DNA of 25,606 nt from Patescibacteria group bacterium. Lineage in GTDB: Bacteria > Patescibacteriota > Patescibacteriia > UBA11705 > JABHMO01. The notes under the pieces are model-generated. The model ran no database searches and was not told where the DNA came from. It saw nothing but the letters and a program-made list of their open reading frames with translations. The DNA is taken from contig JBBTXH010000082.1 in the NCBI GenBank assembly GCA_038062385.1, forward strand, positions 3,749 through 29,354. Direction: 5' to 3'. Numbering within the stretch: the first letter of the stretch is position 1; the number at the start of each line of letters is the position of its first letter. A program made the translations under genes and the position numbers. Below are positions 8,400 through 23,714 of this stretch, in pieces.

Positions 8400-8477
8400 T
8401 GTCTATGGTTACGGATGTACGGATAAACGTACAGATAGTACAGATTATTAGACGCAGATGAGGGATATTGGGGGATA

Positions 8478-8520
8478 CCCATAAACCAGTTGCGTATTCT
8501 CGCAACGGTTTAGGGCAAGC
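8478..8520 (-). repeat. CTTG-footed hairpin element
   Basis: CCCATAAACC a GTTGCG tattct CGCAAC GGTTTAGGG CAAGC; the arm plus CAAG matches copies at 15204-15270, 17073-17113 and 23600-23636. Confidence 0.6.
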
Positions 8521-8566
8521 GAGGGAAACGAGGGTATTGATTTTTTGTTTTATTGTACAGCTCCGT

Positions 8567-8606
8567 TGCTTTAGTGCTTCTATGTTTCTATGCTTAAATG
8601 CTTTGA
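8567..8606. repeat. 8-nt-period tandem array overlapping GT4 stop codon
   Basis: tgctttag/tgcttcta/tgtttcta/tgcttaaa/tgctttga. Confidence 0.75.
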
Positions 8607-9709
8607 TACACCGCTAAGGTTTGCTCCGCGCATTTTTTCCAACTGAATCGTTTTACGTTTTCCAATCCTTTATTTCTGAGTTCTTGTTTTAAAGTTTCGT
8701 TTGATAAAACAGCATAAATCTGTTCAGACATTTCATTGCTGCTCCACGGGTTGAAAAACAGGGCAGAGTCATTCAGAATTTCAGGCATTGATGAGGTATT
8801 TGTGCTGACTACCGAGCAACCGCATTTTTGCGCTTCAATGGCGATAAGTCCAAAGCCTTCGATGAAAGAGGGGAGGACAAAGAGGTCAGCGGCATTATAA
8901 AGTGGGGGTAGTTCTTGATCGCTGATATAACCGGTGGTGATAATATCGTTTTTGAATGGCGAAGCGTTAATCCTTTCGCGAACTTTTGTATCGTGCAAGT
9001 CTTCTCGTCCACCAAGAACAAGTTGATGCGGTAAAGCGTAATTTTTTTTCAGCAAATTAAATGCTTCCACCAATCCGGTGAGATTTTTGTGATCTCGCCA
9101 AACGCCAACGTAAAATATGAACGGTTGGCAAATTCCGAACTTGTTTTTTACTTTATTTATTATAGCACAATTTTCAATTATTTTAAAACGTTCGTCCACA
9201 CCTTCGTGAGTGACAATGATTTTGTCCGGATTAACCTTGAAATACCGGATAATGCCTTGTTTCGTGCTCTCTGAAACAGCGATAATTTTGGTTGCTTTTT
9301 TAACGGTTGAACGGAAAACTGCGCGATAACCGAGGCGTCTGATCAAGGAATTCATTTTATGTCCGGGAAATGTCAGCGGCGTGAGGTCATGAATGGTGCA
9401 GATTGATTTTTTGGGAAATAGAATCGGCGAGTTGAAATGAGGGTAGTGAATCAGGTCGAATTTTTCTCGCAGGAATTGAATCGGCAGTAAAAATTGTTCT
9501 TGATAGGTGTACCAACGCGGAGTTACTTTGACTTTTTTAACGCGACTGTTCGGTTCAATAAATTTGGAGAAAGCCGGTTCGCGCAAAAACAAAACATATT
9601 CGTTTTCAGAGTCTATTTGAAACAAATTGTCAGTCAAGTTTTTTATGTAAGTGCCGATGCCGGTGCATTCTTCATTACCGTACATTCTGGCGTCGATGGC
9701 GATTTTCAT
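8594..9709 (-). CDS. Glycosyltransferase family 4 (GT-B)
   Basis: MKIAIDAR start, TIHDL, FYVG...HKNL, EGFGLIAIEAQKCG signature. Confidence 0.93.
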   Translation of the reverse strand: MKIAIDARMYGNEECTGIGTYIKNLTDNLFQIDSENEYVLFLREPAFSKFIEPNSRVKKVKVTPRWYTYQEQFLLPIQFLREKFDLIHYPHFNSPILFPKKSICTIHDLTPLTFPGHKMNSLIRRLGYRAVFRSTVKKATKIIAVSESTKQGIIRYFKVNPDKIIVTHEGVDERFKIIENCAIINKVKNKFGICQPFIFYVGVWRDHKNLTGLVEAFNLLKKNYALPHQLVLGGREDLHDTKVRERINASPFKNDIITTGYISDQELPPLYNAADLFVLPSFIEGFGLIAIEAQKCGCSVVSTNTSSMPEILNDSALFFNPWSSNEMSEQIYAVLSNETLKQELRNKGLENVKRFSWKKCAEQTLAVYQSI

Positions 9710-9740
9710 AGAAGCAAAAAAGCAAAGAAGCAATAAAACA
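9709..9740. repeat. 8-nt-period tandem array at GT4 start, inverted relative to 8567-8606
   Basis: tagaagca/aaaaagca/aagaagca/ataaaaca. Confidence 0.7.
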
Positions 9741-9743
9741 AAA

Positions 9744-9983
9744 CTATGGATTGTAGGTAATATCAGAGCGTCGTTCGATGGTTAATATTTTAATGACGGT
9801 TTCGTGTTTATGAAAAATAATTCTGATATTGCCTTGTCTTGCGCGAAAAACATCATCGCGGCCTTTGAGTTTCATTATATCAACATGGCTAAAATCCCCG
9901 CTTAAGATTTTTTCCAGCAGAATTTTAACCTTCGTTTTTTCTTTGGCGCTAAGTTTTACCAACGCTTTTGAAATCTTATCCAT
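9744..9983 (-). CDS. RelE/ParE-family toxin
   Basis: 79 aa, basic, DIMKLKG..DVFRARQGNIRIIF...IKILTIERR pattern; 1 nt downstream of antitoxin. Confidence 0.8.
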   Translation of the reverse strand: MDKISKALVKLSAKEKTKVKILLEKILSGDFSHVDIMKLKGRDDVFRARQGNIRIIFHKHETVIKILTIERRSDITYNP

Positions 9984-9984
9984 G

Positions 9985-10194
9985 TTATAAGCGTTTTAGA
10001 ACCTCATTGATTTCAACCCCGCCTTTTTTGATTTTTGTGAAATCAATCACTTCCTCCCAGGCTTCATCGTCAACCGGAGAAATTTTAAATATCGGTTCTG
10101 ATCGCCGAATGACGATAAACGATTCGCCGGCTTTGATTTTTTGGCGATAGGATTCTAGGTTTTCTCGTAAGGATTTTAGTTTGATGGTAGTCAT
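9985..10194 (-). CDS. Phd/YefM-family antitoxin
   Basis: MTTIKLKSLRENL..Y...I.AGESFIVIRRSEPIFKISP pattern with acidic tail. Confidence 0.82.
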   Translation of the reverse strand: MTTIKLKSLRENLESYRQKIKAGESFIVIRRSEPIFKISPVDDEAWEEVIDFTKIKKGGVEINEVLKRL

Positions 10195-10201
10195 GTTTTT
10201 C

Positions 10202-10253
10202 AAGTTAAACTTAAGGTTATCTTTAGTTTAACTTAATATTTTGGCGGTGTCAA
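10202..10253 (-). promoter_or_regulatory. TA promoter with overlapping palindromic operator
   Basis: TTGACA (10248-10253)-17-TAAACT (10225-10230); IR AAGTTAAACT 10202-10211 / AGTTTAACTT 10225-10234. Confidence 0.7.
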
Positions 10254-15866: not shown

Positions 15867-17012
15867 TTAGCGAAGGCGGATATTTTTAAGTAAGGTCGCC
15901 ACTTCTTGCGCCGTCTTGTACCAATTAAATTCTTTCGCTTTTTTTAAACCCAACGAACGCCAATATTCAGCGTTTTCTTTTTTTGTCAGAATGTCCATTG
16001 CCTGAACAAGATCGTTTATATTGCACGGATCAATGAGCAGGGCCGCTTCTTGGCAAGTTTCCGAGAGAGAAGAATTGCTTGAAGTGATCACCGGGCAACC
16101 GCAGGCCATGGCTTCGAGAGGAGGGAAACCAAATCCTTCATAGAACGAAGGATAAACAAACATTGAAGCCAAATTATAAAAATATCGTTTTTCCGAATCT
16201 TTGATAAAACTAACAAATTTTATGTTTGGAGTCAGTTTGGCTGATTTTAATATTTTTTTGAATTTCCAGCCGAGTTTGCCGGCGATAACCAATGAATATT
16301 CGGGATGCTCTTGGTTGAAAAGTTCAAAAGCTGAAATTAAACTAGCCAAATTTTTTCGCGGTTCAATGGTGCCGAGGAAAAGAACGAATTTTTCCGGCAA
16401 ATTATATTTTTGTTTTATTTTTTTCAAGCGAACGTCATCAGTCGGAAGAATTTTATAATTCGCTGATAAACCGGAGTAGATGGTGTGAATTTTTGACGGC
16501 TCGATTTGATAATGGTTGATCAAGTCCTGTTTGGTGTTTTTGGAGATGGCAATAATTTGTTTGGCGTTTTTGAATAATTGCGCGGGGTTGACGAAATGGT
16601 GCCAGAATTTTCGTTTGAACGACAGAAATTCTGGAAAAAATTCATAACTTAAATCATGGGCGGTTAAAACATACGGGCAATTTGTTCGCAGAGAACAAAT
16701 GTTCGGGAAAAAGAAAAAATCAATTGGCGGAGTGTGATATATTTTTTGAATCCAAAGATCGAGTTTGGGGTATTTCAAAAACTTAATGGACAAATTAAGC
16801 AGTTTATTCGGCCAGTGAAAAACGCAATAATGAATGTTGGTTTTCGGAAATTTTGGAATGTATTTGGCCACGTCTTGGCGGGAATTGTAAAACAAAAAAT
16901 ATTCGTTGGTGTTATCAATTTCGAACAAATGTTTCAGTAAATTAAAAGTGTATTCGCCGACGCCGGTCAGTTCTTTTTCCATGAGACAGCGGATATCAAT
17001 GGCTATGTTCAT
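15867..17012 (-). CDS. Glycosyltransferase family 4
   Basis: MNIAIDIR start, TAHDL, FLGTIEPRKNL, YEGFGFPPLEAMACG. Confidence 0.94.
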   Translation of the reverse strand: MNIAIDIRCLMEKELTGVGEYTFNLLKHLFEIDNTNEYFLFYNSRQDVAKYIPKFPKTNIHYCVFHWPNKLLNLSIKFLKYPKLDLWIQKIYHTPPIDFFFFPNICSLRTNCPYVLTAHDLSYEFFPEFLSFKRKFWHHFVNPAQLFKNAKQIIAISKNTKQDLINHYQIEPSKIHTIYSGLSANYKILPTDDVRLKKIKQKYNLPEKFVLFLGTIEPRKNLASLISAFELFNQEHPEYSLVIAGKLGWKFKKILKSAKLTPNIKFVSFIKDSEKRYFYNLASMFVYPSFYEGFGFPPLEAMACGCPVITSSNSSLSETCQEAALLIDPCNINDLVQAMDILTKKENAEYWRSLGLKKAKEFNWYKTAQEVATLLKNIRLR

Positions 17013-17070
17013 AGAAGCATTTAAATAAAGAAGCACTAAAGCAACGAAGCAAGACAAGCGAGGTAAGCAA
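17012..17070. repeat. 8-nt-period AAGCA array at GT4 start
   Basis: tagaagca/tttaaata/aagaagca/ctaaagca/acgaagca, then two 9-nt units. Confidence 0.7.
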
Positions 17071-17299: not shown

Positions 17300-17320
17300 T
17301 AGATCTGTATTACCTACAGC

Positions 17321-18418
17321 CTACCGCCCTACGTCCTGCATCTTGTTCACGATAAACTCTTTTATCTTCAGCTTGAATATTTCCGTGTCAAATTTTTCAG
17401 CATGGCTGCGGATTTCCTGCGGATTATAATCGAAAGGTTTAAACCGTAAAACCTTGTCAGCCAGATCCTCCCAGGTCTGTTCTTCGAACAAGACGCCGGT
17501 TTTGCCATCAACGACCGTTTCGAGCGCGCCGCCGGCGCGATAGGCAATGACCGGCCGGCCGCTGGCCATGGCTTCGACGCAAGTGATGCCGAAATCTTCC
17601 AACTGCGGGTTGATAAAAGCGCGGCATTCGCTAAATAACTTAGCTTTTTTTTCTTCGGAGATTTTTCCGAGAAATTCGATGTTATTTTTCGCTTCTTTTT
17701 TCAGTTTTTTGAATTGTGGACCATCACCGAATATCTTCAGAGGCAAATTCAACCGATTGAAGGCGGTAATCAAAAGATCAAAGCGTTTATAACCAACGAA
17801 TCTGCCGCCTGCGAGAAAATAGTTTCCAAGTTTATTGGAGATATAAAAATTTTTCGTTTCCACCGGCGGGTAAATGATTTCGCTGTCGCGGTGATAATAT
17901 TTTTTAATGCGTTTTTGCACTTCTTTTGAGTTGGCGATGAAGTGATCAACGCGCTCGGCCGCGATTTTGTCCCATTGCCGCAAGTTGGTCAGAACAAATG
18001 GCAGAACTGCTTTGATTAGAAAATTATGTTTCAATTCTTTCAGATAGTTATGGCTGTCGGTCCAGAGGAATCTAGCCGGCGTATGGCAGTAGCAGATATG
18101 AGTGGAGCCAGGACCCGGGATGATACCCTTTGAAAAAATAGAACACGAAGAAATAATCAATTTGTATTTGCCGAGATTGTGGTGCTCGGTGGCGCTGGGC
18201 ATGAGCGCGAGAGGCCACTCAAACCAATGGCTGGCGCCGGGGATTTTTTCAAGAAAAGAGGTTTTTATTTCATATTGATTGAATTCAGGATCAGCCTTTT
18301 TTTTGTTATGAAGTAACGTAAAAAGAGGACTGCCCGGGAAAATTTGCAGTAGAGTTTTGGCAACGCGTTCAGCGCCGCCGTCTTGTACGAGGTGGTCATG
18401 GACGATCGCAACGTTCAT
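17321..18418 (-). CDS. Glycosyltransferase family 4 (mannosyltransferase-like)
   Basis: VAIVHDHL...GGAERV, CYCHTPARFLW, EDFGITCVEAMASGRPVIA. Confidence 0.94.
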   Translation of the reverse strand: MNVAIVHDHLVQDGGAERVAKTLLQIFPGSPLFTLLHNKKKADPEFNQYEIKTSFLEKIPGASHWFEWPLALMPSATEHHNLGKYKLIISSCSIFSKGIIPGPGSTHICYCHTPARFLWTDSHNYLKELKHNFLIKAVLPFVLTNLRQWDKIAAERVDHFIANSKEVQKRIKKYYHRDSEIIYPPVETKNFYISNKLGNYFLAGGRFVGYKRFDLLITAFNRLNLPLKIFGDGPQFKKLKKEAKNNIEFLGKISEEKKAKLFSECRAFINPQLEDFGITCVEAMASGRPVIAYRAGGALETVVDGKTGVLFEEQTWEDLADKVLRFKPFDYNPQEIRSHAEKFDTEIFKLKIKEFIVNKMQDVGR

Positions 18419-23383: not shown

Positions 23384-23428
23384 GATTAGTAAGATGGGGA
23401 GGATTAGAAGGATTAGTAAGATTGGCGA
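23384..23428. repeat. 9-nt-period array in trpS leader
   Basis: gattagtaa/gatggggag/gattagaag/gattagtaa/gattggcga. Confidence 0.75.
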
Positions 23429-23662: not shown

Positions 23663-23714
23663 TAACAATCCTCCTTATCCTCCTAATCTTTCTAATCCTC
23701 CTAATCCTAACCTT
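23661..23714. repeat. 9-nt-period array after rnj stop, inverted relative to 23384-23428
   Basis: cctaacaat/cctccttat/cctcctaat/ctttctaat/cctcctaat/cctaacctt. Confidence 0.8.

Follow-up and report, generated by a model that had tools for sequence, protein, structure and literature searches.

The DNA considered here is a stretch of 25,606 nucleotides (nt), referred to below as the window, from the assembly GCA_038062385.1 of a Patescibacteria group bacterium (contig JBBTXH010000082.1, positions 3,749 to 29,354), and the work concerns a glycosyltransferase gene within it, GT1, both ends of which adjoin inverted arrays of short tandem repeats. The genome containing the window comprises 1.08 Mb in 152 contigs, with a GC content of 41%. 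The closest relatives of GT1 are found in metagenome-assembled genomes (MAGs) of Candidatus Falkowbacteria and of the Parcubacteria group, and population copies come from a groundwater metagenome. As described below, the arrays at GT1 belong to a family of polar intergenic repeats, and members of this family also form the two sides, or arms, of hairpin cassettes with a small gene, or cargo, between them. The features of GT1 and of a second glycosyltransferase gene of the window, GT2, are as follows.

8567 to 8603, plus strand: array in the TGYTT sense (a T array), reading (NNNAARCA)n in the sense of GT1; probably a solo left arm that runs from the GT1 stop and covers the last 7 nt of the coding sequence
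8547 to 8603, plus strand: longer trailer-type element composed of a T-rich stretch, GCTCCGT and the array, with homologous stop-adjacent copies on contigs C88, C53, C59, C52 and C117
8594 to 9709, minus strand: GT1, a GT4-family glycosyltransferase of 371 aa (Pfam PF00534 and PF13439; orthologs), probably a fixed neighbour of two arms and not cargo
9707 to 9709, minus strand: start codon of GT1, in phase with the array, its A at +7 from the last TGCTT core (N-terminus conserved in orthologs)
9710 to 9740, minus strand: leader of GT1, read from the sequence as (TGYTTNNN)x4 with no Shine-Dalgarno (SD) motif; probably a solo right arm of the T family
15867 to 17012, minus strand: GT2, the second GT4 glycosyltransferase (Pfam)
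17013 to 17057, minus strand: leader of GT2, with CTTGTCT-type units, then a T arm and the in-phase ATG (17012-17010) at its end

The arrays can be read directly in the sequence. The ATG of GT1 is located at 9709-9707 and its TAA at 8596-8594, on the minus strand. In the sense of the gene the leader reads TGTTTTAT TGCTTCTT TGCTTTTT TGCTTCT and is followed by ATG, the A of which occupies the slot for the first base of the next array unit, and this leader takes up the entire 34-nt gap between the stop of the upstream open reading frame (ORF; 9746-9744) and the GT1 start. The trailer, again in gene sense, reads ..AAAGCATT TAAGCATA GAAACATA GAAGCACT AAAGCAAC, with the TAA placed within a unit and the final three codons (Q-S-I) already in the register of the array. 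The two sides form inverted repeats of 38 nt with 79% identity, flush with the gene. At GT2 the leader, running 17057->17013, closes with ..GTGCTTCT TTATTTAA ATGCTTCT ATG. The original prediction for this locus, viz. that GT1 lies between inverted arrays of period 8 with its ATG in phase and its TAA inside a unit, and that GT2 has the same kind of leader and in-phase start, is therefore borne out. The regular unit proposed for them, (TGCTTCTW)n, holds for its period but not for its regularity, as the arrays at GT1 and GT2 consist of merely 3-5 units each, and these are degenerate, with a core TGYTT followed by three variable bases. A two-unit pattern allowing at most 3 mismatches has 9 matches in the window, versus 2.47 +/- 1.54 expected, and none of 100 shuffles reached 9; among the inverted and direct repeats found in the window, none is longer than those formed by the GT1 leader, the GT1 trailer and the GT2 leader (I1-I3, D3).

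It had also been proposed that the arrays supply the start and stop codons of GT1. However, orthologs of GT1 have the same protein ends (MKIAIDARMYG... and ...TLAVYQSI-like), and because both termini are shared, the ends of GT1 are natural; the arrays therefore abut or overlap native codons and have created none. A longest-ORF call places the start of GT1 at a TTG at 9733 (379 aa; 8594-9733), whereas the conserved start is the ATG at 9709 (371 aa). As the array units contain a TTG, ATG or GTG every 8 nt, automated gene callers will tend to set starts too far upstream at such leaders, likely throughout the genome. Immediately upstream of GT1, at 9744-10203 on the minus strand, two small ORFs (79 aa and 72 aa), the stop of one adjoining the start of the other, resemble a toxin-antitoxin pair; the 79-aa gene is also found 5' of the GT1 orthologs at loci L009 and L014.

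The arrays at GT1 are not peculiar to this gene. When the genome was scanned for at least 3 TGYTT units at period 8, with at least 14 of 15 core bases matching, 87 arrays were found, versus 1-3 in shuffled genomes, and by strict criteria only two genes are bracketed by them. In the 87 arrays the unit core TGYTT is 94-98% conserved, while the bases at positions 6-8 vary in a manner that depends on the place of the unit within the array. The order of units is common to different loci, the penultimate spacer being AAA in 30 of the 87 arrays, and loci share up to ~65 nt of flanking homology. The genes flanked by these arrays include those for signal peptidase, FtsQ, phosphatases and methyltransferases.

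The placement of the arrays is strongly polar, and the random position and orientation relative to gene ends that would have spoken against the original prediction is not seen. Among arrays located in spacers, it is the 3' end in the TGYTT sense that lies nearest to the gene boundary in 51 of 57 cases (p = 6e-10), the median gap to the gene being 0 nt at this end and 104 nt at the other. By strict criteria there are 14 boundary arrays that serve as leaders, i.e. precede a gene on the same strand, and 27 that serve as trailers, in which AARCA units run from the stop of a gene on the opposite strand. The start codon of array-led genes is at +7, one unit-phase past the last core, for 10 of 27 candidates (p = 0.001), and 18 of 33 trailers have the stop codon inside their last unit (p = 6e-8); 31 genes have AARCA starting at +1 of the stop codon, versus a background of ~5-10 per position. 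Further, the antisense arm would place stops in all three frames right after the gene, because 8 is not a multiple of 3 and the TAA, TAG and TGA that its units provide therefore fall in every frame.

The TGYTT arrays are one family of several. Tandem Repeats Finder (period 6-12, score >= 40) reports 180 arrays in the genome versus 12 in a Markov shuffle, 111 of them mostly intergenic, and spacers are built of several 7-9-nt array families (GTAGG, TACRGAT, GAGGGAT, CTTGTCT, GGATTAG, ATCAGTA and TGYTT) that occur in a recurrent order with TGYTT outermost. The autocorrelation of intergenic DNA is raised at lags 7-9, 18 and 27; it reflects a mixture of array families, and a global 8-nt periodicity of intergenic DNA was rejected. 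Sequences following stops and those preceding starts show no general purine/pyrimidine skew. A lost mismatch repair system was also rejected as an explanation for the repeats, since the genome has MutS and MutL.

The evidence connecting these arrays with cassette-type elements comes from the genes that lie between two of them. The PF05635 family (23S rRNA-intervening sequence (IVS)/Avd-like four-helix bundle) has 10 matches in this genome, 9 of them above the curated cut-off, and 8 of these 9 genes have inverted short-period arrays within ~100 nt on both sides, each cassette with its own array family. Two of the copies, on contigs C8 and C101, have an AAGCA-type left arm and a TGCTT-type right arm, the outer ends of which touch the neighbouring genes. 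In such cassettes the distance from arm to ORF is 30-80 nt and the outer arm ends face away from the cargo. When 976 scorable genes were ranked for the complementarity of their flanks, PF05635 genes occupied ranks 2, 4, 5, 10, 12, 15 and 27, whereas GT1 was at rank 133 (hypergeometric p = 4e-11); the flank duplex energies of these 7 PF05635 genes are -43 to -76 kcal/mol, versus a genome median of -22. Cargo and arms also vary together: the two T-armed PF05635 copies are 72% identical and the two GAATTT-armed copies 67%, versus 21-50% for other pairs, so that the nearest relative of each of these copies is the paralog that shares its arm family. Other top-ranked genes include three that encode GxxExxY (PF13366/TIGR04256) nucleases, with arms of TACAAAT-type or ATCAGTA-type, and all three of the GxxExxY genes checked sit between inverted 7-8-nt arrays. 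The genome has four such small nuclease genes.

G000:C42:9373-9762: GxxExxY (PF13366/TIGR04256) small nuclease gene
G000:C72:6122-6511: the same
G000:C134:6224-6646: the same
G000:C94:10437-10772: the same

The strongest flank complementarity in the genome, -97.6 kcal/mol, belongs to a REP-associated tyrosine transposase gene at G000:C98:412-954 (NF047646, E = 3e-32), which has GTTCCCAAGCTGGAGCTTGGGAAC-type palindromes on its flanks.

Within the TGYTT family itself, 18 of the 87 arrays make 9 pairs in t..T order (complementary arm first, TGYTT arm last), of which 2 have PF05635 cargo, 1 encloses 331 nt of unassigned sequence and 6, with loops of 13-68 nt, are empty hairpins; the other 69 arrays are outside such pairs. 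The opposite order, T..t, was not found inside a single spacer for any of the 87. The empty hairpins at G000:C122:5831-5858 and C131:2868-2895 have a near-identical 28-30-nt loop (CACTGGCTGGAAAGYAGAAGGGAATTCAGT), and a related loop is present on C15.

The arm role of short-period arrays is also seen in related genomes. Of 41 related genomes, 35 have more than one PF05635 gene, the highest number being 18, and the family was found in just 1 of 14 control genomes; in 12 of 12 PF05635 copies, each taken from a different genome, the gene has a short-period array on either side, the two being inverted and their sequence varying from copy to copy. Among the 41 relatives, 19 contain TGYTT-type arrays, and in three (G005, G008 and G013) comparison of coordinates shows that they directly adjoin PF05635 genes. 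One example of a complete cassette is found beside the GT1 ortholog, 65% identical, of a Falkowbacteria MAG (locus L011). Here a 127-aa gene matching PF05635 (E = 1.4e-37) is flanked by a (CTRGKAA)n left arm, which runs from the TAG of the upstream gene, and a (TTACCAG)n right arm, which closes at the ATG of the GT1 ortholog. At the orthologous sites examined (L009-L014) the arrays belong to other families or are missing; this includes L014 (87% identical) and L009 (72% identical), which have different arrays or none despite the same upstream toxin-like gene. The family of array at one and the same site thus turns over, while the orthologs, at 55-87% identity, retain the gene and its termini, and in part its synteny.

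If GT1 itself were a mobile gene cassette, with the inverted arrays as its recombination ends, then it should have moved with its repeats and be patchily present at its site. The flush 38-nt inverted repeats noted above are in accordance with such a reading, and the original prediction had offered it. However, no movement of GT1 with its repeats and no patchy presence was found: the orthologs keep the gene (at L009 and L014 also the toxin gene) in the company of other arrays or none. Further, the polarity of the arms at GT1 is opposite to that of the real cassettes, in which the outer ends are directed away from the cargo with 30-80 nt between arm and ORF, and GT1 ranks far below the PF05635 genes for complementary flanks. 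It is thus extremely improbable that GT1 is the mobile object. The part of the proposal that stands is that a family of cassette-type elements exists; the cassettes lie in the spacers that flank genes, and their cargo is PF05635 or GxxExxY. At GT1 there is no PF05635 ORF between inverted arms, both arrays being solo.

Evidence on variation within the population comes from metagenomes. A drinking-water metagenome contig (run X9) that spans the GT1 start and the end of the toxin gene has an additional 40 nt in the leader, i.e. 5 units in register, so that the number of units at this site has changed in 8-nt steps. Contigs of four divergent runs gave patchy cover, and only this one record was used; many pieces from these runs that are 80% alike represent paralogous arrays, one of them matching the C149 locus, and an apparent 8603->8566 joint in the contigs could not be assigned to the GT1 locus. 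The population assemblies with the exact GT1 protein (L007 and L008) are identical to the window and are therefore uninformative on variation. A difference of exactly 5 units in the leader of one strain could be taken to indicate a phase-variable contingency locus, in which gain or loss of 8-nt units switches or tunes the expression of a surface glycosyltransferase. Genes for such enzymes are well-known examples of phase variation, and the two GT4 genes of the window as well as one on C51 adjoin repeats. However, slippage is lowered by the degeneracy of the units; the array lies outside the ORF, so that the reading frame is unaffected by its length; the same arrays flank genes for signal peptidase, FtsQ, phosphatases and methyltransferases; and near-identical population assemblies do not differ at GT1. 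Phase variation of GT1 is, based on these observations, quite improbable.

Another possibility that had been put forward is pairing between the 5' and 3' untranslated regions (UTRs) of the GT1 mRNA, in which the (UGCUU)n leader and the (AAGCA)n trailer would join to form a loop and take over the control of initiation from an SD. Energetically this is possible for GT1, the duplex having -29.6 kcal/mol, with the AUG included, versus -14.1 +/- 3.4 kcal/mol for shuffled trailers, and no SD is present. However, pairing is not a property of the family. Both partners are found in only 2 of the 39 genes with a boundary array, viz. GT1 and the signal peptidase gene at C53:5660-6262 by strict criteria, with a third under looser ones; the strict number is a slight excess over the 0.32 expected from 14 leaders and 27 trailers (Poisson p = 0.04). 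The same arms also abut the stops of convergent genes and the starts of unrelated genes, the arrays of GT1 orthologs are non-complementary or absent, and the AUG would be sequestered only once the whole gene had been transcribed. This reading we regard as very improbable, slightly more so than phase variation.

The related proposal that SD-type initiation has been replaced fits one fact: an SD-like 4-mer is present in 0 of 16 array-led genes, whereas elsewhere in the genome a strong SD peak of the AAGGAGGTG type is found 9-12 nt ahead of starts. The predicted structure of the T-sense leader arm is no more than that of shuffled sequence (z about +0.5). A solo T arm may act as a U-rich, weakly structured leader lacking an SD, and translation of GT1 may be independent of an SD or may rely on re-initiation once the toxin-like ORF, the stop of which is 34 nt upstream, has been read. 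With respect to a promoter function of the T arm (a -35-like TTGCTT, or a leaderless mRNA), no -10-like hexamer was seen at a fitting distance by eye, no consensus scan having been run. In 3 of the 16 array-led genes (window 9702-9717 and 17005-17020, minus strand, and G000:C132 near 3563), the last unit constitutes a mini-ORF of 3 codons, xTG CTT CTA TGA or ATG TTT AAA TGA, the TGA of which overlaps the main ATG as ATGA. Most array leaders also have TTAAATG ~8 nt before the start.

Based on the above, each of the two GT1 arrays is probably a solo arm, belonging to a family of intergenic hairpin elements that have arrays as their arms and occur throughout the genome. In the complete form, such an element would fill a spacer in the order: stop codon of the upstream gene, purine-rich array (AARCA, period 8), small cargo gene, complementary TGYTT array, and start or stop codon of the neighbouring gene. 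The cargo would be an Avd-like four-helix-bundle protein (PF05635/TIGR02436) or else, where the arms belong to other families, a GxxExxY PD-(D/E)XK nuclease. As the outer end of an arm would rest on the boundary codon of the neighbour, a TGYTT arm can provide an in-phase xTG start. Most copies would be solo arms (about 69 of 87) or empty hairpins (6). The arms would lengthen and shorten through replication slippage, and paired arms may fold in RNA into long imperfect stems, similar to those of rRNA intervening sequences, which the RNase III encoded in this genome may process; copying between loci could conceivably proceed by recombination through homologous arms. GT1 has a solo right arm upstream and a solo left arm downstream, so that both point inward. 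It is, in our estimation, rather likely that GT1 is resident at its site, with a spacer element on either side and the two oppositely oriented, and the arrays should not be interpreted as a device specific to it.

Several observations weigh against this interpretation. Only 2 of the 87 T arrays form part of cargo-bearing cassettes, and no cargo remnants were detected beside solo arms (tblastn with 12 cargo proteins, E < 0.1), the search returning only one further intact GxxExxY gene; due to this, descent of the solo arms from full cassettes is an inference. No insertion mechanism, target duplication or transposase could be tied to the array elements, and the exact phasing of ATG and array is not accounted for by passive insertion. 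The slight excess of bracketed genes and the favourable duplex energy of the GT1 leader and trailer, given above, also belong here.

The main competitor is that the arrays came first. They would then be ordinary polar intergenic simple sequence repeats (SSRs) of the class exemplified by the Xanthomonas GGGAATC, the cyanobacterial heptamer and the Beggiatoa TAACTGA repeats, made by slippage and kept for a function of their own (binding of a protein or RNA-binding factor, unstructured spacers, or a hairpin); the arrays of GT1 would never have been in a cassette, and the PF05635 and GxxExxY genes would be secondary colonisers of array-hairpin loops, as at rRNA helix tips. In accordance with this view, solo arms and empty hairpins far exceed filled ones and lack cargo remnants, and the unit number varies from strain to strain. 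Further, the heptamer repeats show the same polarity and frequent inverted pairs, with cargo genes unmentioned in their description (PMC4692102), and TAACTGA repeats stand directly before SD-less starts (PMC4679880). However, cargo paralogs co-vary with the arm family, as is expected if gene and arms travel together; the unit order and flanking homology of up to ~65 nt that loci have in common indicate copies of an element and not independent local slippage; and orthologous spacers switch to wholly different families, which speaks against a conserved sequence-specific site. An origin of the arrays before the cassettes is accordingly possible, but it appears clearly less likely than the hairpin-element reading.

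A wider extension of the hairpin-element reading is also doubtful, and is offered here as a conjecture less probable than an origin of the arrays before the cassettes. The polar 7-9-nt repeats of many phyla could mostly be orphaned arms of undescribed selfish cassettes with Avd-like or GxxExxY cargo; the oligomeric cargo might recognise its own arm units in DNA or RNA and drive copying or RNA excision, and orphan arms might have been co-opted in streamlined genomes as SD-less leaders and all-frame stop pads.

Other arrays of the window and genome complete the description. Two further spacer features of the window are the following.

8400 to 8546, no strand assigned: remainder of the spacer between GT1 and the DUF4012 gene, with a TACRGAT-type block (~8408-8455), a GAGGGAT-type block and a REP-like hairpin
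17312 to 17333, minus strand: (GTAGG)-type array with the stop TAG of GT3 (17323-17321) inside it, of the same family as the arms of the PF05635 cassette on C60

The leader of the DUF4012 gene is the complement of the TACRGAT array in the first of these spacers, and 3' of GT2 there is an ordinary hairpin with a T-run and no array. Empty inverted pairs of other families are seen at 23384-23423 and 23667-23709 of the window (AGGATTAG/CTAATCCT, with a 254-nt loop containing a REP-like hairpin) and, between two genes, at 2138-2153 and 2198-2242 (TTACGAA/AATTCGT). At G000:C12:12671-17808, six consecutive small genes (a methyltransferase, a glyoxalase, two histidine phosphatases and others of no assigned function) each have strongly complementary flanks, in the manner of a chain of array hairpins.

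With these results, the special case, in which a glycosyltransferase 'cassette' would bring its own devices for start and stop, gives way to a genome-wide rule. Polar heptamers and octamers have been catalogued since 1990-2015 without function or origin; in this 1-Mb Patescibacteria genome and in 12 relatives such repeats can be read as arms of PF05635/GxxExxY hairpin cassettes that extend from stop to start codon, and the PF05635 and GxxExxY proteins become testable candidates for binding or moving them. A set of array-led genes without SD is also flagged in an organism that otherwise uses strong SDs.

Among known systems, the mosaic extragenic repeats, viz. the BIME/REP of E. coli, the BOX elements (A-Bn-C) of pneumococcus and the MIRU of mycobacteria, are dispersed ordered blocks with a variable unit number. 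They occur in either orientation, some (MIRU) overlap flanking stop and start codons, and their units are 35-100 nt in length or palindromic. Unlike the elements described here, they are not known to contain 7-9-nt arrays or PF05635 cargo.

The arrays themselves are a form, specific in being 8-nt, degenerate and of Patescibacteria, of the polar intergenic 7-9-nt repeat class, which is known while its function is unexplained. This class includes the polar intergenic heptamers GGGAATC of Xanthomonas and GGGGAYT of Nostoc PCC 7120 (Rehm et al. 2015, PMC4692102), and that article cites over-represented 5-11-nt SSRs (Mrazek, Guo and Shah 2007) as well as tandem heptanucleotides in Calothrix PCC 7601 (PMC4692102). 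The features shared with the class are tandem, non-triplet, intergenic units of ~5-11 nt that are over-represented, a fixed polarity and variation in unit number at the same site. As in the Xanthomonas and Nostoc heptamers, the arrays are short (~3-6 copies) with a strong intergenic bias; one end lies 0-50 bp from an ORF or over its stop, in any orientation, so that stops are followed by one strand and starts preceded by its complement; inverted pairs are many; and length and sequence vary among close relatives. The near-perfect identity of units that characterises the heptamer class is not seen in TGYTT arrays, which differ in their period of 8, in a 5-nt core followed by three variable bases and in their 1-Mb Patescibacteria host; as they are not G-rich, G-quadruplexes, unlike in the heptamers, are no option. 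They are also tied to PF05635/GxxExxY cargo, a link absent from PMC4692102. In the literature searched, no published link of PF05635 or GxxExxY genes to short-period arrays was found, and the connection described here goes beyond it.

The TAACTGA direct repeats of marine Beggiatoaceae, cyanobacteria and Bacteroidetes (MacGregor 2015, PMC4679880) are similar in ending a few nt before start codons, in leading genes that mostly have no SD and in the lack of a functional theme among the downstream genes; for them, binding of S1, Csp or CsrA has been proposed (PMC4679880). However, the TAACTGA repeats are perfect heptamers described mainly before starts, and neither a complement on the stop side nor hairpin arms are central there.

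For the cargo, the comparison is with rRNA. PF05635 is related to Avd, the accessory protein of diversity-generating retroelements (PMC10053308). Its Pfam name is '23S rRNA-intervening sequence protein', and the solved homolog 2GSC is XCC0516, of Xanthomonas campestris by its locus tag. The PF05635-bearing 23S rRNA intervening sequences resemble the cassettes in having a small four-helix-bundle ORF in the loop of a long inverted repeat within a transcribed region. The stem of rRNA intervening sequences is removed by RNase III. Unlike these intervening sequences, the elements described here are located between protein genes and extend from stop to start codon, with arms made up of tandem arrays of short period, and most of the copies are without an ORF.

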